From Candidatus Cloacimonadales bacterium (GTDB taxonomy: Bacteria; Cloacimonadota; Cloacimonadia; Cloacimonadales; JAFGVF01), in the NCBI GenBank assembly GCA_963677495.2, contig CAXXOU010000004.1:800001-864000 (forward strand): 64,000 nt of DNA. Reading direction: 5' to 3'. Of this stretch, positions 1-17,205 are shown in pieces. The position numbers were made by a program, and so were the translations under genes. Numbering within the stretch: the stretch's first letter is position 1; each line of letters begins with the position of its first letter. The notes beneath the pieces were generated by a model. That model was not told the DNA's origin and did not search any database. It worked only from the letters and a program-made list of their open reading frames with translations.

Positions 1-551
<551 letters not shown>

Positions 552-677
552 TTAAATAAAATGTCCTGTTAAGTTACGTCAAGCATAAATTCATTATATA
601 TTTTCTCTTTGTAAATCACAGGATAAGTATCAACTTTGAATTCATTCAATTAATTATGAACCTGATGCAGAAATTGT

Positions 678-706
678 TTGACATCTTTTATTTTACACAA
701 TAGTAT
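678..706 (+). promoter_or_regulatory. Putative sigma70-type promoter
   Basis: TTGACA (678-683), 17-nt spacer, TAGTAT (701-706), followed by AGGAGG RBS and ATG at 725. Confidence 0.55.
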
Positions 707-724
707 ATACTTAGGAGGTGAAGA

Positions 725-1138
725 ATGGACATACAAAAAGCAAAAGCTGTTCGCCTTATTTTCAATATCGTCCGTGCAGTCATGTTATTCTACACAGTGC
801 TATTCATACTATTCTCACTCTTCTCCGGTTCAGAAGGCTATGGAGGAGGAGTTAAAGGCTTATTACGTAATTCACCCAACATGTTCCCATGGTTAGTATT
901 GCTGCTCATCAATTTCCTGAGCTGGGGTTGGGAAAAGACCGGCGGAATTCTTTTAATCATCTACGGTTTGTTTAGTGCTTTCTTTTTTGGTGGCTTTACC
1001 GGTAACATGTTCATTGTCTTCGCTATCACTGTGCCGTTGATTGTATTTGGCATCGCTACCATAGTTTTTGGTAATTTCAAGAGTATTCATCCAAACTATT
1101 TTGCAAGGGTAAATAAGGAATATCATTTACGAGAGTAA
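725..1138 (+). CDS. Hypothetical membrane protein (about 4 TM segments)
   Basis: 137-aa ORF, strong RBS, four hydrophobic stretches, followed by a terminator. Confidence 0.8.
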   Translation: MDIQKAKAVRLIFNIVRAVMLFYTVLFILFSLFSGSEGYGGGVKGLLRNSPNMFPWLVLLLINFLSWGWEKTGGILLIIYGLFSAFFFGGFTGNMFIVFAITVPLIVFGIATIVFGNFKSIHPNYFARVNKEYHLRE

Positions 1139-1162
1139 ATTGTACTTCCCATTCAATTATGA

Positions 1163-1201
1163 GACGTACATCATTGGAGTCCTAGTGGTGTACGTTTTTT
1201 T
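1163..1201 (+). terminator. Rho-independent terminator
   Basis: Stem GACGTACATCATT...AGTGGTGTACGTT followed by a T run, just after the 725-1138 ORF. Confidence 0.65.
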
Positions 1202-1255
1202 CTACTTATTATCTGATTTCCAAAATAAACATTAAACTCCTTTGTTCATCTTCAG

Positions 1256-1390
1256 TCTCAGCAGTAAATATTGATCCCAAACAGGTTTTAACTTGGGTAT
1301 ATGTTGGTAATTTCTTAGCAATTAGGCCAAGGATTGGCCAAGTGTTGGCCAAGTGTTGACCAAGAGTTTGGCAGGATTTACTGCTGGGAG
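1256..1390. repeat. Family-A 11-bp-periodic palindromic element, copy 1
   Basis: Terminal inverted repeats CTCAGCAGTAA...TTACTGCTG; CCAAG at 1327, 1338, 1349, 1360; homologous copies at 17633-17767 and 40433-40567. Confidence 0.85.
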
Positions 1391-1403
1391 ATGAGGGAGT
1401 GTT

Positions 1404-1430
1404 GTAGGGCAAACAAGCTGCATGCCCTAC
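1404..1430. repeat. GTAG-type REP-like hairpin
   Basis: GTAGGGCA-aacaagctgca-TGCCCTAC; related hairpin near 40857. Confidence 0.6.
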
Positions 1431-1439
1431 GTAACAAGT

Positions 1440-2396
1440 CTAAAAGCCTGTAATGAAGAAAGTACCCGGTTCATTAACTACTACAATTGCAGAATTATTA
1501 TATCTTGAAAATTCCAGATAGAACTGATTATCACTGAACTCATCAACGTATGTGTACTCTGTGATAGCACCATTCAAGTCTCTGAAATATAGCCTAAGAT
1601 TGGAACCAACATAACTTGGTGGGAACTGAAGATATAATAGTGGGCTTTCCTCATTTGCATGATCGAATATGAAACTCGTTGTAATTGGTTGGTCATTAAA
1701 ATCTTTAAAAGCAATATCATAGCCAGCGATAGGGGAGTAGCCCGGAATTGCAATATTGTTAGATATCTGAACTCTATTACCTACTTGGAAATAGTGAGGT
1801 AAAAAGTATGCCGGAAGCATAAATTGAGTCTGATATAAGGAGACATTAACAGGTTCAGTTAGGGAAGTGATTTCATAATCTGCTATTTGTAGTGGTGTGT
1901 TTTCATCAATAGCGAAGTAGTAACCTGGATCATGGACTAAGAACATAGCTCCGTTCTCACCAATTACATAGTCATAACCGTTCAGCTCTGTTCCTAGTGG
2001 ATATGGGTATAGTCGACCACGATTATCTGGTGTAAAGTAGAAGAGGTGTGTTTGATTAGTTGAAACAATATCGACAATAGGATTTATCTCTGCTAGTAGT
2101 GTATCCAGGTTTGTTCCATTACCATCTGTTAATGAGAAATCATAAACTGAAGAAACAAGTTCACTATCATATTGATTCATTAAATCAATCGCTTCAGATG
2201 GTATTGACTCAGTAATGGAAGCATTTAAGAGAAGTCCAACCGGATATGTATTCTGAATCTCATTGTTTAAGTTGCAAAAGCAGGATAAATAGGGGTTCAT
2301 GATTGTAGTTTGCTCTTTAGCAAGTGGTATAATAACCTGATCTGCTAGCTTATTTAAGCTTGCAAATAGTTTCAGAGATGATCTATCAATACCCAA
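1440..2396 (-). CDS. C-terminal part of large repeat lipoprotein (frameshifted continuation of 2462-4663)
   Basis: Frame stays open upstream of the listed start to about 2501 and reads DILESNDSISIVTIEETTDNTKYSYSDGLLHLGIDRSS, matching the repeat motif of the upstream ORF. Confidence 0.75.
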   Translation of the reverse strand: MGIDRSSLKLFASLNKLADQVIIPLAKEQTTIMNPYLSCFCNLNNEIQNTYPVGLLLNASITESIPSEAIDLMNQYDSELVSSVYDFSLTDGNGTNLDTLLAEINPIVDIVSTNQTHLFYFTPDNRGRLYPYPLGTELNGYDYVIGENGAMFLVHDPGYYFAIDENTPLQIADYEITSLTEPVNVSLYQTQFMLPAYFLPHYFQVGNRVQISNNIAIPGYSPIAGYDIAFKDFNDQPITTSFIFDHANEESPLLYLQFPPSYVGSNLRLYFRDLNGAITEYTYVDEFSDNQFYLEFSRYNNSAIVVVNEPGTFFITGF

Positions 2397-2461
2397 ATGT
2401 AGTAAACCATCTGAGTATGAATATTTTGTATTGTCAGTGGTTTCTTCAATTGTGACTATGC

Positions 2462-4663
2462 TTATTGAATCATTGCTTTCAAGTATATCAATATATACAT
2501 ATTATCAGCAGGTTCAGGATGTGATCTGGAAAGAATGATTACTTCACCATCTTGCAAAGATTCCAGAGGGACATCATCAATAAAGAGATTAGCTTCATAC
2601 ACAAACTCGGGTGTATCAATATTAAGTAAATTTGGGTTGAAATATGAAGTGTTTATATTGTTTTGAGGGCTAGTATCAATATGAACCTGATGGGCAGATA
2701 CAACACTGTTTGTACTAATGAAGAAATCATCAGTCATAATCTCAACAGCACTTGGAGGAAGAAAGAAAGTGTATTCATCTAGATCTGTATCAGTATCAGC
2801 AATTACATATTTACTGCTTGAGATGGATCCGAAATAGATGAAGTTGTCTACGGATGCATAATGATTCTCATTGTACTCATCCCCGGCAGTTTGATAATAT
2901 AGTTCAAAATCGATAAGCGTGTTGTTGATAGTAAAAAGGTGTGGGTTTGTAGAGTTTATTAAATCAGAACTAAGTCCTATTTCAATAAACTCATCATCTT
3001 CTAACTCCTGAACTACTAAATCTCCATCTCTCATAATTGTATGCAAAGTGAATGGGGTAGATTCAAGTGTAAAAGGCTCACCTGCGAAGATTCTATCATA
3101 GTAGGGTATCTCAGTATCAAAGATAAGCTCGATTGATGTTAAATCATCTGTATATTCGTTATTATGGATAGTAAGGTTACCATAATCAAACCAAACATTG
3201 TCATAAGGGATATGTACGGTTTTAGATTCAAGATTAGGCTCGTAATCAGCGAAGAAATACTCACTGTTTGAGTTGACACCAAAGTAAAGAAATCCATCTG
3301 AAGATGTATAATGCTCTTCATCGTAACTATCACTTTCGGTTAGATAATCCACAGTTAGAGAATATCCATCATCTTTGTGGAAGAAGAGTAATCTGTCAGC
3401 TTTGCTTTCAGGGAAACCGACTTCGATGTACATATCATCCGGTAGCTCCGATACTAGCTCTCCATCAATTTCAAATGAAAAACCATAAATACTATTAGGA
3501 GTTGCAAGGTTATAACTCTGTGCTCCGAACTTTGAGTCCCAATCAGTTATACTGCTATCAAGATTCAAGGTAAGATAAGCATTATCAATTACAGTATTCT
3601 CAAGATTGCAGTAGAAATCACCCAGATAAATTGAAGAATATGTTCCATCTATAGGAACTTGATATGATTGTGTTTCAGGAATACTGTTGACTAAAAGGTA
3701 TTCTCCTGAACTATTTGGAAAAAGCTTTAGAGTATTGCTATTAAAACTCCATAACTCACTTGATGAGTTTAGCAATACTAAATCATGATTTTGGCTTAGC
3801 AATAAGTGCGTGGGCTCAGATTCAACTAAATCTTTGTATTGCAGGACAATATACATGTTGTCAGGGAGTTTTGTTTTAAAATCAATACTTAATGATTTGC
3901 TACTAACTAACATGTTATTGTAAAGAGCTTGAGCAGATTGAAGTGTTGGTGCTGAAATGCTAGTATCAATATCTATTGCATTTGAGAAACCAAGATCAGA
4001 TGGTAGGAAACAATTGAATCTTTTAGTTAATACATGTAGATTCTTGTTTATATAATCTATAGAATAATGTTCTCTTAACTTAGCCGTAGTATAATAGAAT
4101 CCAAATTCTTCTCCAGGAGTAAGAGGAAGTGATAAGAATGTTGATTCGGGTTCAAGAGCATTGTAGTCGAAGTCTTGTATGAATTCATCATCCCATGTAA
4201 TCATACACAATTCTGATTGGCTCTCTTCTGTTACAGGTATGAAAGCTTTGAAAGCGTTCTCAGGGAATTTAGATGAGAAATCAACAAGCATAGAATCACG
4301 ATAAACGCCAAAGAAATAAGTTGGAGTTGCTTCATTGTACTCAGGTGAAATATAGATAGTATCCCTTTCCACAAAACTTTCTACTTCCCCAAACCAAAGA
4401 AAGTCACCTTTTACGAGGAGAGAATCACTAATGATTTCTTTATTAACTAATAGATATGCATCTGTGTTTTGTGATGGCACATAGTAGTTCATAGTTTCAG
4501 TAATCTCAGTTCCGATGAAGTAACCGGGTATATCACTTTCTGTAATAGAGAAAGGATCAACTCCAACAGGATAATCATTGCTTTCCCTAAAGCATCCGGA
4601 TAGTGTAAGTAAAAGTAGGCTTATATATGTCAGTTTCTTTATAACTACCAAACGAAACTCCAT
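2462..4663 (-). CDS. Large acidic beta-rich lipoprotein with internal repeats (N-terminal part; about 1074 aa if joined to 1440-2396)
   Basis: Lipobox LLLTLSGC; repeated motif HYTSSDGFLYFGVNSNSEY / HYASVDNFIYFGSISSSKY; start overlaps the upstream stop (TAATG). Confidence 0.8.
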   Translation of the reverse strand: MEFRLVVIKKLTYISLLLLTLSGCFRESNDYPVGVDPFSITESDIPGYFIGTEITETMNYYVPSQNTDAYLLVNKEIISDSLLVKGDFLWFGEVESFVERDTIYISPEYNEATPTYFFGVYRDSMLVDFSSKFPENAFKAFIPVTEESQSELCMITWDDEFIQDFDYNALEPESTFLSLPLTPGEEFGFYYTTAKLREHYSIDYINKNLHVLTKRFNCFLPSDLGFSNAIDIDTSISAPTLQSAQALYNNMLVSSKSLSIDFKTKLPDNMYIVLQYKDLVESEPTHLLLSQNHDLVLLNSSSELWSFNSNTLKLFPNSSGEYLLVNSIPETQSYQVPIDGTYSSIYLGDFYCNLENTVIDNAYLTLNLDSSITDWDSKFGAQSYNLATPNSIYGFSFEIDGELVSELPDDMYIEVGFPESKADRLLFFHKDDGYSLTVDYLTESDSYDEEHYTSSDGFLYFGVNSNSEYFFADYEPNLESKTVHIPYDNVWFDYGNLTIHNNEYTDDLTSIELIFDTEIPYYDRIFAGEPFTLESTPFTLHTIMRDGDLVVQELEDDEFIEIGLSSDLINSTNPHLFTINNTLIDFELYYQTAGDEYNENHYASVDNFIYFGSISSSKYVIADTDTDLDEYTFFLPPSAVEIMTDDFFISTNSVVSAHQVHIDTSPQNNINTSYFNPNLLNIDTPEFVYEANLFIDDVPLESLQDGEVIILSRSHPEPADNMYILIYLKAMIQ

Positions 4664-5880
4664 TATAGTTTGAATTTGTAACCTACTGTTCCAGTGTAGG
4701 CGTATGTATCATCATTAATAGTATATGATAAAGAGAAGATAAAGCTCTTCGGAGAATATTTGAGACCTAGACCATATGATAAAATAGGCTCATCATGGTT
4801 ATCTATAACATATCCAGTCGGTGAAACGTAAAACTCTTTGTCACCCCAAAAGACGTAAGCATTTGGAGTGAAATTATATGGCAAGTAGTAGATAAGATTT
4901 GAATGGAAAAGCCAATAATCATCATCCATATCTTCTACTTCATAATCTCTGATACTGCTACTTAACTCTACTTTAAGACCAATGTTATCAAGTTTAGTTT
5001 CATACCATATAGTGTTTTGAATTGTAGAAAGAATATCATAATAGAAGTATGAAAATGCATAACCCAGTCTATTATAGCCGTATTGATTGATAAACTCCTT
5101 CTGATACATAACTGAACCACCATAAGTGTCATATAACAACTTATAATCACCTGAAATGTATGTTAAATCGATACCTGATTTCCAACCGGAACCGATAAAC
5201 TTATAACCGAGACTGTAACTGTCACGTTTTGTATCATCTGATTCGAAGTGATTATATCTCATACTGATTAGATTTGTTCTCATAGTGATATGTGTAGAAC
5301 CAAAATAGGATACATTGTCATCATCAGAAGAACTGTAACCGGAATAGATTGATGTGAAAAAAGGCATCTTCTCAAGGTAATCCAATTTTTGAGATGCAAT
5401 ATAGTTATTACTATTCACTTTAAGTGCGTTCCTAAGATAACCTTCTGCCTTAGAAAGGTAATGTAGATCTATGTAGTTCATACCAAGACCAGTAAGCTCT
5501 ATTGATCGGTCAGCAGAACCAAGAATAGCTGTTTTATAATAGTGAATACTTTTAAAGTTATTACCTTCAAGGTAATTAATGTAACCTAAGTAACTTGCAA
5601 ATATTCTGTTGGGAGAACAGCATATAAGTGCAGTACCCGCATCGACTTTTGCTCTATCTAGATGTTTGAGAGCTAGTGAAGACTCTATTGCTCCAATATA
5701 TGCATTGATATTTGTACTGTCAGCATCAATAACATCGTAATATGCATTTCGAGCAGTAAGATACTGTTTATTTAGTAATAACTGATATGCTTTTTCAATG
5801 GAAGCATTAGCCAGCAATTGTAAGGGTAAAATCAGTATTATAAGAAAGAGACTATTTCTTAATAGCTGCTTCATATTCAC
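4663..5880 (-). CDS. TPR domain + probable outer-membrane beta-barrel protein
   Basis: Signal peptide, TPR-like helices over about 170 aa, then Tyr/Gly/Ser-rich alternating strands ending YTGTVGYKFKL. Confidence 0.75.
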   Translation of the reverse strand: MNMKQLLRNSLFLIILILPLQLLANASIEKAYQLLLNKQYLTARNAYYDVIDADSTNINAYIGAIESSLALKHLDRAKVDAGTALICCSPNRIFASYLGYINYLEGNNFKSIHYYKTAILGSADRSIELTGLGMNYIDLHYLSKAEGYLRNALKVNSNNYIASQKLDYLEKMPFFTSIYSGYSSSDDDNVSYFGSTHITMRTNLISMRYNHFESDDTKRDSYSLGYKFIGSGWKSGIDLTYISGDYKLLYDTYGGSVMYQKEFINQYGYNRLGYAFSYFYYDILSTIQNTIWYETKLDNIGLKVELSSSIRDYEVEDMDDDYWLFHSNLIYYLPYNFTPNAYVFWGDKEFYVSPTGYVIDNHDEPILSYGLGLKYSPKSFIFSLSYTINDDTYAYTGTVGYKFKL

Positions 5881-6457
5881 TCAGATATTTACTTGATGGT
5901 GCATACTTCTTTACAAACTCATACTGAGTTTTAGCTTTCATGAAATCAGATGAGTATGTATAGCAACCAAGTAAGTAACATCTACTATCGATATGATATG
6001 GGTAGCGAGTTAGGATTTTAGTATAAACCTTTGCTGCTTTTGTCCAATCTCCTTTGAGGAAGAAAGCATAAGCTTTATAACCAAGTGCTGTGAAGTCATA
6101 TGGATATTTCTTCAGTACTTCATCTGAGTACTTAATTACTTTATCCCAGTCAGCAGTATAATAAGCAACAAGGTTTAAACCCTCTAATGCTTCAGTGGAT
6201 TTATCCATTTTATATGCTTTTTCATAGTAGTTCTTTGCAGATACATAATCAGCACTAAGATAGCTTAGCCAACCTAATCTAATGTTGTAAAATGCATTGT
6301 TAGGATCTGACTTAATTAGGGAATGCATAGCTTCTAGAGCTGCAGTATACTGATAGTTAGTCTCATAATTATATGATCTTGTTAAAGGATTCTCATTTTG
6401 GGCATAAAGAAAGCTCATCGCAATCAATACAACAACTAATATTATTATCTTCTTCAT
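5852..6457 (-). CDS. Secreted tetratricopeptide repeat protein
   Basis: Signal peptide MKKIIILVVVLIAMSFLYAQ; TPR patterns such as YNIRLGWLSYLSADYVSAKNYYEKA. Confidence 0.85.
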   Translation of the reverse strand: MKKIIILVVVLIAMSFLYAQNENPLTRSYNYETNYQYTAALEAMHSLIKSDPNNAFYNIRLGWLSYLSADYVSAKNYYEKAYKMDKSTEALEGLNLVAYYTADWDKVIKYSDEVLKKYPYDFTALGYKAYAFFLKGDWTKAAKVYTKILTRYPYHIDSRCYLLGCYTYSSDFMKAKTQYEFVKKYAPSSKYLSEYEAAIKK

Positions 6458-7405
6458 CTATTCCTCCATAAGTTTTAAATTCTTACTTAGCTCTTCAGAA
6501 AACAATTTTGCTCCTAAAGCATTTAAATGATCACCATCTCCGAAACCTTTATCAGGTAATGGAAAACGCGAAAAATCTAGGTATTTAGCATTAAATTCCT
6601 GCTTAAGATGATCATAAACAACCACATGGTTTCGTTTAAAAGCATCCGGTATTTTATTGTAATAATCGTCGTGGACAGGAGTGTTTATAAGAATTATCTC
6701 TATATTGTTTTCGTTACACATACTGCAAATCTTTTTTACGTATGAATACATGAGTTCAGATATTCCTGCTTTTGCGCCATCACTATCATAATGTGCTTTC
6801 AATGACTGTTGTATTGTATCATTCGAAAGGTTACATGTATCATTATATCGATAATATCCACCGAATGGATAGTTTGCTATGTCCGGTTTACCATTGTGCA
6901 TAAGATAGAAAAACAGGTGCATGTTATTTGAAAAGTCGAAGGGTAATCCCCAATCATACTTAAGCTTAGTATATAACCAATCACCATCTTTCTTTGATGT
7001 AAAGATATTTTCTTGATCCGAAATAATCGGGTAATATCTGTTTAAAAGAACATTGCGTCTAACTCCCAACATCTCTTCATCATACAGTGTTGAGAAGTTA
7101 TGATAGGAGAAATTGAGCAGAACTCTTTCAGGTTTGCTGTACTTGAGGAAATAAGTTAACTTCACGTACGTTAGAAAGTAATTCTCACTGTTTTTCGATA
7201 GATTTACAGAGTCCTCGATAATATCAGGATCAATTGCACACTGAGTATGAGAATCTCCCATAATGAATGTTTTTTCATCCAAGGAGAAATACTTAGGATT
7301 ATAGATAGTTGGTAAGAACACAAACTTGTTCACTAAAGTTAATCCAATTATGAAAGCACTTGTAATCAGTAAAAAAATCAGTATGTATTTAAATATATTA
7401 CGCAT
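6458..7405 (-). CDS. Membrane-anchored SGNH-fold protein (AlgJ/PatB/DltD-like acyltransferase partner)
   Basis: N-terminal TM helix, block I IMGDSH, block V DGDHLN; directly downstream of the MBOAT gene. Confidence 0.75.
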   Translation of the reverse strand: MRNIFKYILIFLLITSAFIIGLTLVNKFVFLPTIYNPKYFSLDEKTFIMGDSHTQCAIDPDIIEDSVNLSKNSENYFLTYVKLTYFLKYSKPERVLLNFSYHNFSTLYDEEMLGVRRNVLLNRYYPIISDQENIFTSKKDGDWLYTKLKYDWGLPFDFSNNMHLFFYLMHNGKPDIANYPFGGYYRYNDTCNLSNDTIQQSLKAHYDSDGAKAGISELMYSYVKKICSMCNENNIEIILINTPVHDDYYNKIPDAFKRNHVVVYDHLKQEFNAKYLDFSRFPLPDKGFGDGDHLNALGAKLFSEELSKNLKLMEE

Positions 7406-7407
7406 AG

Positions 7408-8802
7408 TTAGAATTGGAAATAGATGAATTGGTTCTCGTTAAAGATTCCAAAACAAAAGATTATAACAACGAGAGCACTTAGAATGAAAACACGTTGCAT
7501 AGGTTTTATTGTAGTAAACTTTGAAAGGTCTGTTTCAAACTTTAGATGAATCAATCCCATCAAAGCAATGAATACGAAACTAAGAACAAGTTCTGTCAAA
7601 GTTAGTCCCGGTAAAAAACCACCCCAACTAAGAGGTGATACAATATTTTTAAGAATATAACAAGCTTCAAACAATGAATCAGCTCTAAAGAATATCCAAG
7701 CAAGACTTACAAGTGTAAATGTTATAACTACTCCAAGGAATCTCGGAATCTTAAGATTAAATGGTTTTAAGATATTCCAAAGAATTATCATAACTCCATG
7801 GATTAAGCCCCAAATCATAAATGTCCAGTTTGCTCCATGCCAAAAGCCACTTAAAGCAAAAACAATAGCAAGGTTCAGGTATTTTCTTGGAATAGAAATC
7901 CTATTACCACCAATTGGAATATATAGATAATCTTTAAACCAAGCCGATAGTGAGATATGCCAACGTCTCCAGAACTCGTTAATATTATGAGCAATATAAG
8001 GAGATTTGAAATTTTCCAGGAGTCTGATACCCATCATCCTTGCAATACCTAATGCAATATCAGTATAACCACTAAAATCACAATAGATCTGGAAAGTAAA
8101 AAACACTACACCTATTATTAAGGGTAACCCGGAGTATGCTGTAGCATGTGAGAATACTTCGTCAGAGAAAAGTGCTAATCTATCAGCAATCACTACTTTC
8201 TTAAATAATCCAAAAATAATTCTTGAGATTCCAATCAAAAAATCATCACTTTCTATATGCTTTTTTGTTCTTAACTGGGGTAACAGATGACCGGCCCTTT
8301 CAATCGGTCCGGCAACCAGTTGTGGAAAGAAAGAAACGTATAAAGCAAAATACCCTAAATGTCTTTCCGCTTTAAGTTTTCTTCTATATACATCTATTGT
8401 ATATCCCATTGTCTGGAATGTATAGAAAGAGATGCCAACTGGGAGTAGAACATCTATGAATTTATACCCTTGAGGATATGCATCAGTAAATAGTCCAAGC
8501 AGACTCCCTGAAAGGAAGTTGAAATATTTAAAGAAGAATAGCAGTCCAATATTGGTAACTATACTCAAATACAGGAACAGTTTTTTAGTTCTCTCAGAAT
8601 TACTTGATTCTATCCTAATTCCTGCAATGTAATCAACAATAATTGATGTTACAATCAGAATCAGATAAGCCGGCCTCCAAAAACTATAAAAGAGGAAGCT
8701 TGCTCCAAGTAATAATCCCCATCTACCTCTTTGAGGTACAATGTGAAAAAGAATCAATATTACAGGAAGAAACAGGGCAAATTCCAAGGAATTAAAAAGC
8801 AT
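7408..8802 (-). CDS. MBOAT family O-acyltransferase (AlgI/PatA/DltB-like)
   Basis: LPVGISFYTFQ, FFPQLVAGPIER, FSGYTDIA, EFWRRWHISLS, SGFWHGA (catalytic His), C-terminal FIYFQF. Confidence 0.95.
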   Translation of the reverse strand: MLFNSLEFALFLPVILILFHIVPQRGRWGLLLGASFLFYSFWRPAYLILIVTSIIVDYIAGIRIESSNSERTKKLFLYLSIVTNIGLLFFFKYFNFLSGSLLGLFTDAYPQGYKFIDVLLPVGISFYTFQTMGYTIDVYRRKLKAERHLGYFALYVSFFPQLVAGPIERAGHLLPQLRTKKHIESDDFLIGISRIIFGLFKKVVIADRLALFSDEVFSHATAYSGLPLIIGVVFFTFQIYCDFSGYTDIALGIARMMGIRLLENFKSPYIAHNINEFWRRWHISLSAWFKDYLYIPIGGNRISIPRKYLNLAIVFALSGFWHGANWTFMIWGLIHGVMIILWNILKPFNLKIPRFLGVVITFTLVSLAWIFFRADSLFEACYILKNIVSPLSWGGFLPGLTLTELVLSFVFIALMGLIHLKFETDLSKFTTIKPMQRVFILSALVVIIFCFGIFNENQFIYFQF

Positions 8803-10946
8803 TATTCAGTTCTTTCGACCTCTATCAGGTTCTCTCCATTTTTATCTAAGCACATTCTTGATATACCGTTTTCCTGAGAAATCTCAATCGTTCCAGTATA
8901 CTTTCTAAAAACCTTGTTAAAGATTTTTAAGTTAATGAATGATTGAATTTCTAGAACTCCCTTATTGTCAACAGCTTTATAATTAGCTTCTGTTGTAATG
9001 AATCCGGGCATGAATGCTTTTAAGAAGAGAATTGATTTCTCCATGAATGGAGAATAGAAGATTGATAATGGTGGTTTATCATTCCACTCTATCGACTTAC
9101 CTTTGAGATAGGGGAGTCTTGAAAGCAGAATTGCAAATGCATGTAAGCATGTACATCTATTACCATAATAACTGAAACAGTTATAAATTCCTTCATAGAT
9201 TGAGAAATATATATATGATTTATTGTCACTGGTGATGCTCAGATTTCCTAATAAATCCACATTTACTTCCCAGTTTTCTTTGGTAGTGCCACTTGCGACC
9301 TTTTTATTGAATACATAACTATCTTTAACTTTAAATCTCAATAGGTCTTGAAGTGAGTAATCAGGGATTAAAGGAGAGATTAAATCATCTTTTAATGGAA
9401 TTCCATAAGGAGTGAACTCATAATTCATAGTATCTTGAGTCTTCTTATAATTTACAAGATATGACTTAAGAGTTGAGGATCCCGGTTCAGGGCCTAACTG
9501 AATATTGAAATGCAGATGTGGGACTTCTGATCGACCTGTATTACCAACTGAACCAATTTTTGTTCCCTTACCGATGTAATCACCTAATTTCAGGTTAATT
9601 GTTCCTGGTTTCAAATGTGCATACATTGAATAGATACTACCCCAATGATGTACAATAACGTAATTACCCCAGTTATCTGTAGTATTTATTTGTCCAATTG
9701 GATTATCAGGAACTCCATCTAAAACTTTTGCAACATATCCAGGGGCTGATGCTAATACAGGTTTACCGTAACAGAAATAATCATTAGCATTGATTCCTTC
9801 ATTACGATACTTTTTACCCTCTTTATCTTGCATCTCAAAGTCCCATGCATGTTTCCAAAGATCTTTGTGAGTAAACTCCCCATCGTTACCTTGAGTGATA
9901 ACCCATTCTCCACTAAAAGGTAAGGCAAACTGAGATGTACCGGTTTCATAGAAACGATCAATTCTTGAGTAATAGTACTCTAGGTTTCCTTCAGGATGGA
10001 AAGCACCATAGTCTATGCTATATGGGTTCTTATTCACCAATCTAAGTCGCATAGCATATACATAGATAAACACTGTTATGCAATATGGGAATGCAAAAGG
10101 TGGTACGAAAAAGTTATAAAGCATTGTCTGGAAAGAAAATGCTATTATAATACCAGTAATCCCTGCAACCAAAGCTATAAGGTATGAGTACCAACCTGGC
10201 ACAAAGAAAACCCCGCCAATAGCTATTGAAATGAGTATCAGGTTCAGGCTTGGGAATAGTATTTCACCTGTTGGAAAATTATTAAAAACAGTCATGAAGA
10301 TAAAACTCAAACTATAACCAACTAACGATAGTACAAATCCGATTCTAGTTGTTATCAAAAGAGCAATTGCAATTAAAGCTCCTGTCACTATATTGGGTTG
10401 AAAGAAAATACTTCCTAAACTCTTGAAGTATAGCTCAATGAATTGAGGAATCTCCAGTGATATAGGGAATATAAGTGCTCTTGCTTCACCTATTAGTGTA
10501 CCACCAATTCTCAAATAGAAGAAACTAAAGAATATAGCTATGAATGAGAATGACAGACTCATCGATGGGAAGTTTAAGTATCTCGTGATTATCGAATTCA
10601 ACGCAACAAAAGTCAGCATTGTTAAGATAGAACCTATTACAAGTAAGCTACAGAAGATAAGTGGATTAAATCCGCTTGATGGATAGAAGTAACCTAGTCC
10701 AAGTGTTACCAATAAACTGTTAAAACCTAATAGACCTGAACGACTCTCCCAACCTTCAAACTTAAAGATTCTAGCAAAAGTTAGCGATATAGTAACTCCA
10801 ACTAGTCCTGAAAGACCTGTCTTCCAGTCGATAAGGGTTGAGACTAGAATTAGAAATCCTACTATCCTTTCATTGCTGAAGAGGATAGTAGAATATGAAT
10901 TAAATACTGCATCAACTAATGCAGGAATCTTAAATTTTGCTTTCAT
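8802..10946 (-). CDS. Urea-transporter-like membrane domain fused to M23 metallopeptidase domain and a C-terminal extension
   Basis: About 10 TM segments with UT-like motifs (GLLGFNSLLV, SLGSIFFQ); M23 motifs HAWDF, YAHLK, VGNTGRSEVPHLHF. Confidence 0.85.
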   Translation of the reverse strand: MKAKFKIPALVDAVFNSYSTILFSNERIVGFLILVSTLIDWKTGLSGLVGVTISLTFARIFKFEGWESRSGLLGFNSLLVTLGLGYFYPSSGFNPLIFCSLLVIGSILTMLTFVALNSIITRYLNFPSMSLSFSFIAIFFSFFYLRIGGTLIGEARALIFPISLEIPQFIELYFKSLGSIFFQPNIVTGALIAIALLITTRIGFVLSLVGYSLSFIFMTVFNNFPTGEILFPSLNLILISIAIGGVFFVPGWYSYLIALVAGITGIIIAFSFQTMLYNFFVPPFAFPYCITVFIYVYAMRLRLVNKNPYSIDYGAFHPEGNLEYYYSRIDRFYETGTSQFALPFSGEWVITQGNDGEFTHKDLWKHAWDFEMQDKEGKKYRNEGINANDYFCYGKPVLASAPGYVAKVLDGVPDNPIGQINTTDNWGNYVIVHHWGSIYSMYAHLKPGTINLKLGDYIGKGTKIGSVGNTGRSEVPHLHFNIQLGPEPGSSTLKSYLVNYKKTQDTMNYEFTPYGIPLKDDLISPLIPDYSLQDLLRFKVKDSYVFNKKVASGTTKENWEVNVDLLGNLSITSDNKSYIYFSIYEGIYNCFSYYGNRCTCLHAFAILLSRLPYLKGKSIEWNDKPPLSIFYSPFMEKSILFLKAFMPGFITTEANYKAVDNKGVLEIQSFINLKIFNKVFRKYTGTIEISQENGISRMCLDKNGENLIEVERTE

Positions 10947-10949
10947 ATA

Positions 10950-12296
10950 TTATGATTTAAGATGTTCTGGGATTCTCTCTTTATGCTGGATATCATTAAG
11001 ATATTCACGCTCTCTTATGAGCTCAACATCACCCGTCTCAGTAATTAGAACAACATTAGGTCTATATTCAATAAACTGCATCCATTGTGTCACATTGTAC
11101 GCGCCTACCGGATGAATAATAACTTTATCATCAACATGTAGATCAGGGAAAACACAATCAGGTTTAACTACATCAATATTCATGCAAAGAGGTCCATAAA
11201 ATACAGTACTTCTGGAAGTGCCTGATAACGGTTGAGCAGGTTTTACTGTAAGGTTATACCACCAGGCTGTAATCATAATATTTACACCACCATCAAGGAT
11301 AACAGCACGTTGTCCGGTAGGTAAATCCTTCTTTCCAAGCACAGAAGAGATGCAATATCCGGCTTCTGAAACTAACACACGCCCGGTTTCCATAATGAGT
11401 TTTGGGTTCTCTTCTCTGGTAAATTGAGCTTCATTGAATGCTCTGCCAATAGCTGCAAAGTATTGCTCTGGATTTGGAGATGCAAATTCTCCCGGAGTAT
11501 ATTGGTTATGTAGTGTGTTTTTAGAAGCGAACCCGCCGCCTAAATCGATATATTCAACTACAATACCAAACTTTTCTTTTAACTGCATTGCAAGGTCTAG
11601 GAGTGCTTTAGCTGAAAAATAATATGCAGATGGTTCAAGCATGAAAGTACCTATGTGACAATGAAGTCCTACAATCTTTAACTTGCCACCTGATACAATA
11701 CGTTGGAGCGTTCGCATTGCTTCTCCATTTTCATAATTAAACCCAAATCTTTGCCATTGCGGATAAACTCTTGTATCCATGTTCACGCGAATAGCAACTT
11801 CAGGGGTCATACTTAGCTCTTCAGCAACTTCTTCAAGAAGAACAAGCTCATCCATATGATCTATATGAATCTTAGCATTCTCAGATACTGCTTTTAACAG
11901 GTCATCTTTACGCTTACCGGGACCATTGAAGATAATATCTTCACCCTTCTGTCCTAGACCTTTTGCCATATCGTATTCCATGATGCTAACAACTTCAGGT
12001 TTCGCACCTTCCTGATGGAAGATAGAGGAGATGGCTTGTAGGTAGTTAGTCTTATATGACCAGCTTATCTCTGAGTTAGGATAATACTTCTCAAGTTCAA
12101 CTTTCATTTTACGATACTTTTCTCTAATCGCATTCTCAGAGAAGACGATTACCGGAGAACCATACTGCTCTACGATATCATTTACAGGTACATTCTCTAT
12201 TCTATCCTGATAATTTGCTACGCTTGAGAATCCAAACTTGTTTGTCATCCCTACATCATTTTTTTCTATAAAAGGTGGGTTATATTTCTTCTTCAT
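10950..12296 (-). CDS. PLP-dependent fold-type III decarboxylase (DAP/Orn/Arg decarboxylase family), substrate uncertain
   Basis: SYKTN (PLP Lys), FNGPGK, HCHIGT, DLGGGF, ETGR, GPLC, VGAY. Confidence 0.88.
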   Translation of the reverse strand: MKKKYNPPFIEKNDVGMTNKFGFSSVANYQDRIENVPVNDIVEQYGSPVIVFSENAIREKYRKMKVELEKYYPNSEISWSYKTNYLQAISSIFHQEGAKPEVVSIMEYDMAKGLGQKGEDIIFNGPGKRKDDLLKAVSENAKIHIDHMDELVLLEEVAEELSMTPEVAIRVNMDTRVYPQWQRFGFNYENGEAMRTLQRIVSGGKLKIVGLHCHIGTFMLEPSAYYFSAKALLDLAMQLKEKFGIVVEYIDLGGGFASKNTLHNQYTPGEFASPNPEQYFAAIGRAFNEAQFTREENPKLIMETGRVLVSEAGYCISSVLGKKDLPTGQRAVILDGGVNIMITAWWYNLTVKPAQPLSGTSRSTVFYGPLCMNIDVVKPDCVFPDLHVDDKVIIHPVGAYNVTQWMQFIEYRPNVVLITETGDVELIREREYLNDIQHKERIPEHLKS

Positions 12297-12298
12297 AA

Positions 12299-13372
12299 TT
12301 AGTTTTCCTTGCTGTAGTGTAATTCTCCCTGACTGGAGATTGTTCCGAATCTATCGATTGTTGAGATTATATCTTCTGAATGTCTAATAAATATTGTACC
12401 TGCTTTGTACTCTGTCATTGGCTCCACTTCTTTATCGAGAGCTTTTAAAAGGCAAGCTGCCGGAAGGTTTTGTCCTGCTCCTGATGAAAGTCTTATCCAG
12501 GCAGGGAAGCGAGGATTAATCTCAATAATAAAGATTTCACCAGCACCATTCTGAATAACTTCGAGCTCTGCCGGTCCTCGCCAGTTCAGAATTCTTATAA
12601 CTTGATGAGTAAACTCAGTTAAAGCCTGATTCTCAATCACAACACCACCAAACCCTTTACCCTTATCGGTAATTATAAGCTTGCGTTGCGGTATCATACC
12701 AAGTACTCCACCTTCACCATCACCAACAAGTGAGACATTGAATTCATCGCCAATCACTTTCTCCTGCACGATTATTGGCAGTCCCCATTTAGCTTTAAGT
12801 CTGGCAAAGACATCAAAAGCTTCGTCAATTGTACACACCTCGTATGCTTCGTACAATCTTCCCTTCACAAAGAACGGGAATGCTATTGTAGTTACAATAT
12901 TATACAACTCTTTAGCATCTGCACAGAAGAAGGTTTTTGGAACTTTGATTCCAAGCTCTCCAAACTCACGGTTAAGCCTTGTCTTATCTCTGGCAAGGAA
13001 CTGCTCTTCTGTTGGTAAGTAGAAGCTAATCCCTCGTTCTTTCAATTTATCTTCAAGTCTAATATAGTTGATTATCTCAGAATCAAGCGTAGGGATAATT
13101 ACATCTATCTTAGTTTTACTCAATATGTAATCAAGACGAGTAAGGAATATCTCTGAGCCACCGGAAGGGAAAGGCATCAGATAGATCTCATCAGCTAAAT
13201 CGTCAACAAAGATTCCCGCTTCAAGTGCATCATAAACTAGTGCTACTATTTTTCCTTTGAATCCCGCATCACGTAAACATCTGATTACGGGAGTGCCGGG
13301 TTGAGGGTTATCTCCGGTCTTTAGACCGGTAACAGCTACTGTTATGTCTAAACTACTTAAATCAATTTGCAT
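12299..13372 (-). CDS. ATP-grasp carboxylate-amine ligase
   Basis: DK, FPFFVKG, IVQEKVIGDEF, EINPRFPAW motifs; N-terminal VAVTGLKTGDNPQPG. Confidence 0.9.
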   Translation of the reverse strand: MQIDLSSLDITVAVTGLKTGDNPQPGTPVIRCLRDAGFKGKIVALVYDALEAGIFVDDLADEIYLMPFPSGGSEIFLTRLDYILSKTKIDVIIPTLDSEIINYIRLEDKLKERGISFYLPTEEQFLARDKTRLNREFGELGIKVPKTFFCADAKELYNIVTTIAFPFFVKGRLYEAYEVCTIDEAFDVFARLKAKWGLPIIVQEKVIGDEFNVSLVGDGEGGVLGMIPQRKLIITDKGKGFGGVVIENQALTEFTHQVIRILNWRGPAELEVIQNGAGEIFIIEINPRFPAWIRLSSGAGQNLPAACLLKALDKEVEPMTEYKAGTIFIRHSEDIISTIDRFGTISSQGELHYSKEN

Positions 13373-13373
13373 A

Positions 13374-13619
13374 TTACTTCACCAAATGAAGGTTTTTAAG
13401 TTGAGTTAAGAAGTATGCAACATCTCTGTTCAGGTTTTCTTCTGTAACTTCATATTCTGACAGTATTTTTGCTTCAATTTCAGTGTCAGATAGGCCTGAT
13501 TTCAAAAGAGATATAATTGTTAAAGCCATATCATTACAATTATAAGATAGCCCTGTTGTAGGGTCAAAAATAAAGCCATTATCGCTAATAGCTAGTTTGT
13601 TTAAATTTGTTACGTCCAT
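13374..13619 (-). CDS. PqqD-family (RRE) peptide-chaperone-like protein
   Basis: 81 aa; three short beta strands (FIFDPTTGLSYNCN) then helices ending EYEVTEENLNRDVAYFLTQLKNLHLV, a typical PqqD pattern; GGAG RBS. Confidence 0.85.
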   Translation of the reverse strand: MDVTNLNKLAISDNGFIFDPTTGLSYNCNDMALTIISLLKSGLSDTEIEAKILSEYEVTEENLNRDVAYFLTQLKNLHLVK

Positions 13620-13656: not shown

Positions 13657-15477
13657 TTACCCCGTAGGGTTATTCTTAAAATACTTATAAATCTCCGTGG
13701 CTAACTTAAGACTGATGCCTTTAACTTCAGTCAGTTCTCCTACTGTTGCACGTTTTATTCCATCTACTGAGCCGAATTCTTTCAATAGGAGGAATTTTGT
13801 TTTATCACCAACACCTTTAATATTGTCTAATTCTGATTTAATTGTGCGCTTACTGCGTCTCTGTCTATGAAAAGTAATTGCAAATCTATGTGCTTCATCT
13901 CTCACATCAATTAACACTCTTAACGCTCCTGAAGATCTGGGGAGGAGTATAGAGCTTGTTTGTCCTGCAACGAAGACTTCTTCGATTCGTTTAGCAAGTG
14001 AAATCATGCTAATCGAGCCGTCTGATTGTTCCCGTAATTGACTGTACGCTCTGTTTAACTGTCCCTTTCCGCCATCTATGACAATCAAGTCCGGTTTTAA
14101 CTGCTCATCTTTTTCAGTTTCATGTAAAAATCTTTCTAAAGTCTCTGCCATGGATGCGAAATCATCTTGTCCAATAACCGTTTTCATAATGAACTTACGG
14201 TACATCTTCTTCTTGGGTTTACCGTTCTCAAAAAATACTGCAGAGGACACTGTATCACTTCCTTGAATCGTCGAAATATCCATACAGACAATCTTACGGG
14301 GTAGCTTTGGTAATCCAAGTAGTTCTTTCAGTTCCTGAATCGGTACAATTGTTCTTGTTGCTTTTCTCAAATGTGCAAGCTTCTGCTCCTCAACATAATT
14401 GAAGGCATTGAGTTTGGCTACATTGATCAGTTGAGCTTTTTCACCACGCTGAGGGAGAGTTAGACGATTTCCTAACCACTCATTCAATACATCCATAATA
14501 TCCGGTTCTAACTGGAGTAATATGCTATGTGGTAACTCATCAATCTGAGCATAATATGATTGCAGGAAGAAAGACAATATCTCAGATTCAGTCGATTCTT
14601 TAACCTGCGATAGGGGATAAACCTCTTTGTGTAGCACTTTACCTTCAACCATCTTGATTACAACAACTGCAGCAATATCTTCCTCTTTCGCGAGAGCTAT
14701 AATATCTCTATCCTTGAAATCAGTAAGGAACATAGTACGATTCGATTGAACTTTCTGAAGTGCTTCAATCTTATCTCTGGTAAGTGCAGCTTTCTCAAAC
14801 TCCATCTTTTCAGCTTGTTCCTGCATCTCAGCTTTCAGTTCATCAATTATCGCATTATGCTTGCCCTTAAGGAACTTCATCATCTGATCAACAACTCGTT
14901 TATACTCATTCACAGATATTTTACCTATACAAGGTGCAGTGCAAGTACCTAATTGGTAGTTGATACAGGCTTTATCAAATACGACCTTGTCAGCAGGAAT
15001 GTTCCTTGTACATCTGCGAATAGGAAAGATCCATTCCATTAACCTCATGGTCTTACGAACAGCTCCTGCATTTGTATGAGGACCGAAGTATCTGTTCCCA
15101 TCCTTCTTATAATCTCTGGTAACAAAGACACGTGGGAATGGTTCTTTAGTAGTAACTTTTATGAAGGGATATCGTTTATCATCTTTCATGATGATGTTAT
15201 ATCGAGGTCTATGTTGCTTGATTAGGTTTGCTTCGAGCTCTAATGCTTCCGACTCTGTATTGGTGATTATATAATCCAAATCACAAATTTTCGAAACTAG
15301 TCTTGCAGTCTTGGGATCAGACGGTTTTCCATTAATATATGACATAACCCTGTTCTTAAGGTTAACTGCTTTCCCTACATATATAATCTTACCTTTCTCA
15401 TTCTTCCAGAGATAACACCCTGGTTTAGAGGGGAGAAGACGTAGTTTAGTTTTTAGTTCTTCCGAAATCTTTGCCAT
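13657..15477 (-). CDS. uvrC: Excinuclease ABC subunit C
   Basis: GIY-YIG LPSKPGCY...IIYVGKAVNLKNRV, DIST, VIDGGKGQL, RDEAHRFAI, C-terminal HhH. Confidence 0.97.
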   Translation of the reverse strand: MAKISEELKTKLRLLPSKPGCYLWKNEKGKIIYVGKAVNLKNRVMSYINGKPSDPKTARLVSKICDLDYIITNTESEALELEANLIKQHRPRYNIIMKDDKRYPFIKVTTKEPFPRVFVTRDYKKDGNRYFGPHTNAGAVRKTMRLMEWIFPIRRCTRNIPADKVVFDKACINYQLGTCTAPCIGKISVNEYKRVVDQMMKFLKGKHNAIIDELKAEMQEQAEKMEFEKAALTRDKIEALQKVQSNRTMFLTDFKDRDIIALAKEEDIAAVVVIKMVEGKVLHKEVYPLSQVKESTESEILSFFLQSYYAQIDELPHSILLQLEPDIMDVLNEWLGNRLTLPQRGEKAQLINVAKLNAFNYVEEQKLAHLRKATRTIVPIQELKELLGLPKLPRKIVCMDISTIQGSDTVSSAVFFENGKPKKKMYRKFIMKTVIGQDDFASMAETLERFLHETEKDEQLKPDLIVIDGGKGQLNRAYSQLREQSDGSISMISLAKRIEEVFVAGQTSSILLPRSSGALRVLIDVRDEAHRFAITFHRQRRSKRTIKSELDNIKGVGDKTKFLLLKEFGSVDGIKRATVGELTEVKGISLKLATEIYKYFKNNPTG

Positions 15478-17015: not shown

Positions 17016-17205
17016 AAGCACTCCATTAAAGATTTTCATAACTATTTAACGGGATTAGTTATTGTCAAGCGGGATATTCATATCGACTCTTTAGAACTCT
17101 TTAACAAGTTAACCAGGTTTTGTTATCAGCTTATCCGTTTATTCAATAATCGTGTTTCTATTGATTAGGATAACTTAAGGTCGTTAGCATACAATGCTAT
17201 TTCCA

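Follow-up and report, generated by a model that had tools for sequence, protein, structure and literature searches.

The operon analysed here occupies positions 1,440 to 13,619, on the minus strand, of a 64,000-nucleotide stretch of DNA from a Candidatus Cloacimonadales bacterium (contig CAXXOU010000004.1, positions 800,001 to 864,000); this whole stretch is referred to below as the window. It bears the label G000:C4:800001-864000, the source assembly comprises 3.4 Mb in 4 contigs, and all operon coordinates are window positions. Six genes make up the conserved core of the operon: a PqqD-type recognition element of ribosomally synthesized and posttranslationally modified peptides (RiPP recognition element, RRE), an ATP-grasp enzyme, a pyridoxal phosphate (PLP)-dependent decarboxylase, a fusion of a urea-transporter (UT) domain with an M23 peptidase and a C-terminal domain, a tetratricopeptide-repeat (TPR) protein, and a TPR protein that continues into an outer-membrane β-barrel. 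A membrane-bound O-acyltransferase (MBOAT), an SGNH-like protein, and a giant lipoprotein complete the operon in this genome (Table 1).

An initial annotation of the window had described these genes as a single tightly coupled operon. Our check of open reading frames (ORFs) found the ten minus-strand ORFs and every junction listed there: 13374/13372, 12299/12296, 10950/10946, a shared base at 8802, 7408/7405, 6458/6457, an overlap at 5880/5852, and a shared base at 4663. Neighboring genes are spaced by −29 to +3 nt down to position 4663, and the count of nine genes holds once the ORFs at 2462–4663 and 1440–2396 are merged into a single lipoprotein gene. Pfam and NCBIfam agree with the annotated domains for PqqD, ATP-grasp, decarboxylase, UT/M23, MBOAT, and TPR; the SGNH call stayed weak, with a subthreshold match to DUF1574.

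Table 1. Genes and domains of the operon in minus-strand order, with the basis of each assignment
Feature	Window positions	Strand	Basis
PqqD-family RRE, 81 aa	13374..13619	-	PF05402
ATP-grasp ligase, 357 aa	12299..13372	-	ATPgrasp_Ter, ATP-grasp_3
Alanine-racemase-fold PLP decarboxylase, FigC/BtrK kind, 448 aa	10950..12296	-	Fold-III PLP domains; PDB match FigC
Decarboxylase N-terminal tail, residues 1-22, lasso-leader look-alike	12231..12296	-	73-orthologue alignment
UT/M23 fusion gene	8802..10946	-	Pfam
Urea-transporter-fold channel domain of fusion, residues 11-298	10053..10916	-	PF03253
M23 zinc peptidase domain of fusion, about residues 343-484	9495..9920	-	PF01551
Fusion C-terminal domain, about residues 485-714, ~230 aa	8805..9494	-	No family assigned
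MBOAT acyltransferase, genus-specific insert	7408..8802	-	PF03062
Membrane-anchored SGNH-like (DUF1574-like) protein, genus-specific insert	6458..7405	-	DUF1574 below cut-off; motifs
Secreted TPR protein, 201 aa	5852..6457	-	TPR families; signal-like segment
TPR + 14-strand outer-membrane β-barrel, 405 aa	4663..5880	-	Structure model, Foldseek
Lipoprotein gene, ~1,070 aa, Cloacimonadota-specific	1440..4663	-	ORFs 2462-4663 (733 aa) + 1440-2396 (318 aa)

The core was delimited by comparing 107 loci: 27 from Cloacimonadota, 20 of them fetched additionally, and the best 80 of 509 confirmed metagenome loci, the metagenome scan having used a nine-sequence alignment as query. For enzyme genes, a locus was counted when it had 3 kb or more of sequence upstream of the fusion, and for TPR genes when it had 2.5 kb or more downstream. 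The loci were picked by likeness to the fusion and some are related to each other, so the counts express linkage rather than independent events. In 20 of 21 Cloacimonadota loci, the genes for PqqD, ATP-grasp, and decarboxylase immediately precede the fusion in that order, and the three are found just upstream of it in 44 of 47 metagenome loci (42 by filter, with the PqqD ORF also found in L068 and L082). Across both collections, 64 of the 68 loci with sufficient flank show the gene order PqqD, ATP-grasp, decarboxylase, fusion. Downstream, every locus counted has a TPR-type gene after the fusion (24/24 Cloacimonadota, 45/45 metagenome). Co-occurrence in other genomes, on which the initial annotation depended, is thus borne out by the neighborhood comparison, far beyond chance.

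Within Cloacimonadota, 93 of 232 genomes have a match to the fusion at E ≤ 1e-10, which in a few covers the M23 part only, and a decarboxylase orthologue occurs in 85 of 232 at E ≤ 1e-90; it is absent from 147, several of which are about 99% complete. Decarboxylase and fusion counts are nearly equal family by family (f1, 11/11 for both; f3, 62/98 vs. 64/98; f12, 5/62 vs. 8/62), and their coordinates are adjacent. A HMMER scan of 1.84 billion representatives with the fusion gave 650 clusters (50% identity) at E ≤ 1e-30; the best 150 representatives are mostly 690–760 aa long and match from near query residue 10 to past residue 600. One of the ten clusters looked up carried an organism name, Melioribacteraceae, and the range outside Cloacimonadota rests on that name together with type IX secretion system (T9SS)-type sorting domains in neighboring genes.

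Several loci bear marks of insertion or decay. In the one exception among the 21 Cloacimonadota loci, L026 (G144:C9), a block of four genes at 773–4885 separates decarboxylase and fusion; it includes two DNA methyltransferase genes and a protein with a T9SS sorting domain, and has the appearance of a restriction-modification island. At L015 (G101:C1), the ATP-grasp gene is interrupted at 332–3364 by a transposase gene of the MULE/Mutator type (480 aa), leaving fragments of 90 and 331 aa and a disrupted cassette. Fusion matches in G074, G017, and G025 contain in-frame TGA, TAG, or TAA stops or are split into pieces, as decaying copies or assembly errors would be. Proteins that carry the T9SS sorting domain Por_Secre_tail, in some cases along with FG-GAP repeats, adjoin the cassette upstream of PqqD in L044, L038, L033, and L077, and also at L011 9804–10976 and L084 7758–8564; given these neighbors, a link between the cassette and secreted surface proteins is possible. 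Outside Cloacimonadota, many versions of the cassette encode an AraC-type regulator immediately before PqqD (L059, L074, L084, L101), and some loci place a sigma-70 region-2 gene, resembling the extracytoplasmic function type, between decarboxylase and fusion (L074 9360–9935, L087 9366–9944).

A conserved feature of the decarboxylase is its N terminus. About 30 residues precede its FigC-aligned region, and conservation counted over 73 orthologues gave Lys at position 2 (72/73), Tyr or Phe at 5 (73/73), Pro at 8 (73/73), Ile or Val at 10 (72/73), Lys or Arg at 12 (72/73), Gly at 16 (69/73), Lys at 20 (73/73), and Gly or Ala at 22 (73/73). Lasso peptide leaders carry a YxxPxL motif at −17 to −12 and a recognition residue at −2 that is Thr (rarely Ile or Val), and Gly1 opens the core, according to excerpts of PMC10368454. 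When Y5 is numbered −17, Lys20 of the decarboxylase tail occupies −2 and Gly22 occupies +1. The tail thus resembles a lasso leader in register—the YxxPxL spacing and the −2 and +1 positions coincide—with Lys in place of the Thr of lasso leaders. Searched against the PDB by sequence, the tail (35 residues) matched no solved chain. We considered a lasso-like macrolactam formed inside the decarboxylase and abandoned it: core positions 7–9 hold no conserved Asp or Glu, and position 34 is Asp or Glu in most orthologues, not all.

The RRE scores 36.9 bits against PF05402 (cut-off 23.4), and its profile, built from 50 orthologues, lies nearest to the lasso B1 proteins TbiB1 (5v1u, 49.8 bits) and TfuB1 (6jx3, 39.4 bits). 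A model of the decarboxylase with the RRE scored 0.74 (runs 0.77, 0.74, 0.74; best of three controls, 0.00), passing a mark reached by 116 of 157 solved complexes and 2 of 215 mismatched pairs, a calibration that holds only roughly here because both chains were modeled from alignments that we built ourselves. The runs share at least 78% of their contacts, with a predicted local distance difference test (pLDDT) value of at least 83 for the partner. In the predicted interface, tail residues 2–13 and 15 meet RRE residues 24–32 (the β3 strand) and the RRE helices, and the contacts of least error are those of Y5, P8, and I10. The RRE is thus predicted to bind tail residues 2–13 through Y5, P8, and I10, as lasso B1 proteins bind their leader. 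The initial annotation had noted that such domains bind peptides; the complex model points to the decarboxylase's own tail, not a separate peptide, as ligand. We found no separate short precursor gene around PqqD, where no minus-strand ORF reaches 20 aa and gaps measure 0–37 nt, the rest of the genome lying outside that search.

The decarboxylase itself matches Pfam fold-III PLP domains at 113 and 37 bits. K82 of its SYKTNY motif, which we take to be the PLP lysine, is invariant in 50 orthologues together with the GGG loop and C371, and the catalytic residues are intact. The closest solved relative is the N-citrylornithine decarboxylase FigC (7kh2, 210 bits), followed by LysA (1twi, 150 bits) and BtrK (7ru7, 116 bits), and no diaminopimelate (DAP) decarboxylase exceeds 150 bits. 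NCBIfam models are matched below their cut-offs, FslC at 237 bits (500) and lysA TIGR01048 at 214 bits (297.9). Its score below the equivalog cut-off, and its absence from 147 of 232 genomes, which parallels that of the fusion, mark the enzyme as something other than the housekeeping LysA, the mundane identity that the initial annotation had weighed against its own proposal. A second LysA-like gene (386 aa, 166 bits; G000:C4:18007-19062, L111 1453–2613) is likewise under the curated cut-off. No gene of this genome reaches the LysA equivalog score of NCBIfam, in a search that was positive in 13 of 14 control genomes.

These relatives suggest a chemistry. FigC, SbnH, AcsE, MccE, and BtrK fall in one clade with DAP decarboxylase, and those five act on side-chain-conjugated amino acids, according to passages of PMC7857480; BtrK, CtaF, and FlvO decarboxylate carrier-bound Glu or Asp, as stated in portions of PMC11350588. 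The operon pairs an ATP-grasp enzyme with an alanine-racemase-fold decarboxylase that has FigC and BtrK among its best PDB matches, a likeness measured by pairwise score rather than by a tree.

The ATP-grasp protein matches ATPgrasp_Ter (36.9 bits) and ATP-grasp_3 (29.2 bits) in Pfam, has 42 invariant columns in 50 orthologues, and was modeled at a pLDDT of 91.2. By sequence, its sole PDB match is 2pn1, at 25 bits. By fold, Foldseek again placed 2pn1 first (template-modeling score, TMt, 0.86; function unknown), then carbamoyl-phosphate synthetase, PylC, RizA, biotin carboxylase, PurK, and Ddl. PylC has the highest identity among these top fold matches (20%), and a PDB title names its complex with L-lysine-Ne-D-ornithine. 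The nearest NCBIfam models carry the name “carbamoyl phosphate synthase-like.”

The fusion begins with a complete UT domain (PF03253, 164 bits, full profile, residues 11–298). This part aligns end to end with dvUT, UT-A, and UT-B and contains both LPxxxLPF-type pore repeats; the score against the yut equivalog TIGR03441 is 99.4 bits (cut-off 274.6). We mapped the dvUT selectivity-filter residues, taken from the text excerpted from PMC4357013, onto 33 fusion family members through the UT alignment. The family has Leu at L84 (30/33), L247 (27/33), and L129 (26/33), Phe at F190 (32/33), Phe or Tyr at F80 (29/33), Ser or Thr at T130 (31/33), Ile at V188 (26/33), and Gln at Q24 (20/33), and is variable at E187 and T294. 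Pore-lining positions are thus mostly kept.

The M23 domain of the fusion (PF01551, 58.8 bits, residues 393–483) retains H360, D369, H444, H477, and H479 in 33 of 33 members; we take these residues to be its zinc ligands and catalytic histidines. Together with the C-terminal domain, it most likely faces the cytoplasm, because a sequence check found no hydrophobic segment after residue 297, basic residues flank the UT domain at both ends, and both termini are cytoplasmic in solved UT proteins. A periplasmic M23 enzyme acting on peptidoglycan was dropped on this topology, by which M23 is very probably no periplasmic processing enzyme. The C-terminal domain has no Pfam or PDB match, and an Atlas feature search gave scores of at most 0.79, which were not used; its length is conserved in the 150 best representatives.

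Two proteins point outward. The 201-aa protein has several TPR family matches and an N-terminal signal-like segment. The 405-aa protein, modeled at a pLDDT of 93.8, consists of TPR helices (residues 28–170) followed by 14 strands (175–404); in Foldseek, BcsC (9b8a) is the best overall match (E 5e-12), and OmpG gives the best superposition of the barrel (TMt 0.61–0.73). The likeness to polymer exporters drawn initially is therefore upheld, with BcsC as top fold match and a confidently modeled barrel. A TPR domain joined to an outer-membrane barrel is present, and a glycosyltransferase or synthase family is absent from the operon proteins in Pfam and NCBIfam.

Two additions to the core are confined to narrower lineages. 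The MBOAT protein (PF03062, 109.9 bits; DltB 6bug, 98.8 bits) has a WRRWH motif at residue 278. Its partner has an N-terminal membrane anchor, GDS at residue 50, DGDH at residue 290, and a DUF1574 score of 21.6 bits against a cut-off of 29.1; compared with the PDB by sequence, it gave nothing meaningful. The pair sits between the fusion and the TPR gene in the window and in L001–L003 (genus g1) only; it is absent from all 24 other Cloacimonadota loci and from all 80 metagenome loci. The cassette copy of MBOAT (at least 59% identity) occurs only in G111–G113, and MBOAT paralogues are found in 128 of 232 genomes, with three copies in G000. What had been annotated as an acylation module of the system is a genus-specific insert outside the conserved core. 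The coupling of its junctions to the cassette (the shared base at 8802 and a 2-nt gap at 7405–7408) suggests that in genus g1 the cassette product or its periplasmic partner may be acylated.

The lipoprotein, marked by the lipobox LSGC and without a Pfam family, has homologues in 17 of 27 Cloacimonadota loci (in some, of the C-terminal part alone) and in 0 of 80 metagenome loci; it had likewise been counted as part of the system and is instead specific to Cloacimonadota. An intact orthologue in L003 (1,067+ aa) aligns to both ORFs, with the frame switch near 2490–2500, and short-read contigs of four public runs, at depths of 6–21, carry one additional A behind position 2489 that joins the frames. 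The two ORFs are therefore a single gene split by a one-base assembly indel at 2489/2490, a correction that is not independent of the assembly, all four runs being from one sample that is possibly the assembly's own source. Similar indels may hit other genes in the four contigs.

Beyond the operon, murJ and uvrC lie upstream at 13657–17039, overlap each other by 25 nt, and end 37 nt ahead of PqqD; this arrangement is kept in L001 and L003 and not in other genera. At the other end, a convergent DUF7670 gene (725–1138, plus strand) is followed by a hairpin with a 17-bp stem at 1161–1198, which could terminate both that gene and the operon.

Taken as a whole, the core likely makes an amide-linked compound that would pass outward through a urea-channel-like pore. 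Our preferred account, to which we give a probability of about 35%, is that the six genes build an amino-acid-derived amide on the RRE-held tail of the decarboxylase and release it at the cytoplasmic mouth of the pore. The RRE would hold the tail while the ATP-grasp enzyme, spending ATP, joins an amino acid through its carboxyl group to a tail amine—either the Lys20 side chain (compare PylC and the lysine ε-amine) or the Gly22 α-amine after a cut between −1 and +1. The decarboxylase would then strip the free α-carboxyl group from the tethered residue, acting on a conjugated amino acid as FigC, SbnH, MccE, and BtrK do. Cytoplasmic M23, in the place of the lasso B2 protease, would cleave the amide where the UT pore opens to the cytoplasm, and the product would exit through the pore, the TPR proteins, and the barrel; in genus g1, acylation by the inserted pair would take place in the periplasm. 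By analogy, RRE, leader-like tail, protease, and ATP-dependent amide-forming enzyme would mirror lasso B1, leader, B2, and C one for one.

Several points weigh against this tail-templated scheme, every chemical step of which we infer. One round of ligation, decarboxylation, and hydrolysis would merely convert an amino acid into an amine at the cost of ATP, so something is missing from the scheme, be it iteration, cyclization, or another substrate. A tail cut between −1 and +1 would make the decarboxylase single-use. Enzymes of the carbamoyl-phosphate synthetase and biotin-carboxylase types lead the ATP-grasp fold matches, and the fold does not separate ligase from carboxylase; carboxylation in place of amino-acid ligation would also be compatible with those matches. 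A UT-type filter would be too narrow for most charged amines and would fit small neutral amides, and two of its positions (E187, T294) are not conserved. The cytoplasmic placement of M23 rests on UT homology and charge distribution. Three of the 47 metagenome loci (L055, L072, L097) have the fusion without the three enzyme genes nearby. RRE–leader complexes have already been solved, and the pass of the complex model may for that reason partly reflect likeness to them.

The main rival, which we hold to be only slightly less probable, has untethered small molecules as substrates and uses the tail solely for docking or activation. The ATP-grasp enzyme would join a free acid to a free amino acid, a reaction that FigA achieves by other means, the decarboxylase would act on the free conjugate, as FigC does, and a small neutral amide would leave by the UT pore; contact with the RRE would gather the enzymes at the channel, or M23 would clip the leader to switch the decarboxylase on at the site of export. 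FigC, the closest solved relative, has a free conjugate as substrate, the largely kept pore residues fit a small neutral amide, the lasso-like −2/+1 register indicates a single cleavage site, and the decarboxylase would not be consumed per turnover beyond one activation. Left unexplained are the protease fused to the channel in hundreds of lineages and the invariance of Lys20 (73/73) where lasso leaders have Thr, and a dedicated outer-membrane TPR-barrel would be unusual for a urea-sized solute.

An exported polymer, as initially annotated, seems unlikely, and no result came out in its favor. Repeated ligation and decarboxylation would yield a linear amide chain that is cut by M23, threaded through the channel and the BcsC-like barrel, and acylated by the MBOAT/SGNH-like pair in this genus. 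The TPR and barrel architecture is best matched by a cellulose exporter, a slot-like filter selective for amides is retained, extracytoplasmic polymers are the usual substrates of MBOAT/SGNH pairs, one of which is inserted here in translational coupling, and BtrJ reportedly acts twice in the butirosin side-chain route. Set against this, no polymerase-like or processivity element is present, the acyltransferase pair is missing in 104 of 107 loci, the 14-strand barrel is nearest in size to the porin OmpG, and a chain growing at its free end could not be exported during growth.

Less probable still would be a ureido or carbamoyl compound, formed by an ATP-grasp enzyme that activates bicarbonate and carboxylates an amine in the manner of carbamoyl-phosphate synthetase, biotin carboxylase, or PurK, with the UT pore conducting the urea-like molecule. 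These three kinds of enzyme are the best fold matches after 2pn1, the nearest NCBIfam name agrees, and the UT fold is kept with most filter residues. The carboxylase-type matches show only 14–19% identity, however, within a common ATP-grasp fold in which PylC, RizA, and Ddl score alike, and this chemistry would give no role to the FigC/BtrK-type decarboxylase, the RRE, or M23.

A long shot is a reusable primer: held by the RRE, the tail would be extended as ATP-grasp and decarboxylase alternately add and decarboxylate Glu or Asp, giving a side-chain-free oligo-γ-aminobutyrate or oligo-β-alanine (“nylon-like”) chain that M23 clips and that threads in single file through the amide-selective UT pore and the BcsC-like barrel. 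If true, secreted biopolymers would gain a new class, and the UT fold a new use.

That LysA, a urea transporter, a peptidoglycan M23 hydrolase, and an O-acetylation pair merely sit beside murJ by chance is hardly credible: MurJ and UvrC are directly upstream, no LysA in the genome reaches the NCBIfam cut-off, and MBOAT/SGNH pairs include the peptidoglycan O-acetylation enzymes PatA/PatB, but conservation contradicts chance placement, which the initial annotation had left as an alternative, through the order kept in 64 of 68 loci from two collections and a decarboxylase that tracks the fusion and is missing elsewhere, while the genome has a second LysA-like gene at another position, the placement of murJ and uvrC ahead of the cassette is limited to this genus, and M23 follows the last UT helix without a further membrane segment.

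If the tail-templated scheme is true, it would contain three uses not described before: an RRE that reads a leader built into an enzyme, an M23 peptidase as the cytoplasmic gate of a channel, and a UT fold through which a biosynthetic pathway, equipped with an outer-membrane pore of its own, empties across the inner membrane. The 650 fusion clusters and the roughly 85 of 232 Cloacimonadota genomes suggest that anaerobic digesters, sediments, and related habitats may widely harbor a novel metabolite or envelope modification. In Cloacimonadota, the core is seen to accept add-ons (the MBOAT/SGNH-like pair and the giant lipoprotein), which offer a handle on events on the periplasmic side. The tail, Lys20, Gly22, and a soluble M23 fragment make the tail-template hypothesis open to ordinary biochemistry.

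A full-text literature search (PqqD + urea transporter; RRE + ATP-grasp + PLP-dependent decarboxylase), which did not extend to subscription journals, returned no paper on this gene set. With the junctions and the conservation, it bears out the initial view of a tightly coupled, conserved single gene set that matches no described pathway. Parts of the set have clear counterparts. Exopolysaccharide export systems (BcsC, PgaA, AlgK/AlgE; AlgI/AlgJ, PatA/PatB, DltB/DltD) share the TPR protein with an outer-membrane barrel and, in this genus, the MBOAT with an anchored SGNH-like partner; the cassette differs in having no glycosyltransferase or synthase, in its 14-strand OmpG-like barrel, and in carrying the acyltransferase pair as a genus insert. 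The UT/SLC14 channels (dvUT, UT-A, UT-B) share the full-length fold and most filter positions, whereas the fusion carries M23 and a domain of about 230 aa, varies at the E187 and T294 equivalents, and falls below the TIGR03441 cut-off. In the borosin/omphalotin enzyme OphMA, the enzyme's own terminal tail is reportedly modified and then cut off by a separate peptidase; that tail is said to be C-terminal and the chemistry methylation, with no RRE, channel, or envelope parts.

Among enzyme sets, BtrI/BtrJ/BtrK (butirosin), CtaE/CtaD/CtaF (closthioamide), and FlvL/FlvN/FlvO, as far as the excerpted sources describe them, likewise combine a gene for a small protein, a ligase, and an alanine-racemase-fold decarboxylase for a tethered amino acid. 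The cassette differs in that its small protein is an RRE, none of its proteins matches a PP-binding or acyl carrier protein family in Pfam or NCBIfam, the tether would be the decarboxylase's own tail, and the downstream partners are a channel–peptidase fusion and envelope proteins. The FigA/FigC (FslA/FslC) rhizoferrin route, with SbnH, AcsE, and MccE, supplies the nearest relative of the decarboxylase and a clade acting on conjugated amino acids (passages of PMC7857480); here an ATP-grasp enzyme stands in place of the NRPS-independent siderophore (NIS) synthetase, there is no siderophore uptake context, and the FslC score is under its cut-off.

The closest parallel is lasso maturation, with its B1 RRE, B2 protease, and C lactam synthetase. 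The cassette departs from it in that the “leader” is the N terminus of a 448-aa enzyme and the operon has no precursor gene; in that the protease is a channel-fused M23 zinc enzyme rather than a transglutaminase-like B2 cysteine protease and the ligase is ATP-grasp rather than the asparagine-synthetase-like C protein, neither the B2 nor the C family being found among the operon proteins in Pfam and NCBIfam; and in that −2 is Lys rather than Thr and no acidic residue is conserved at core 7–9. What the two share is an RRE whose profile lies nearest to B1, a tail with YxxPxL spacing, a conserved −2 residue, and Gly or Ala at +1, and the company of a protease and an ATP-dependent amide-forming enzyme.

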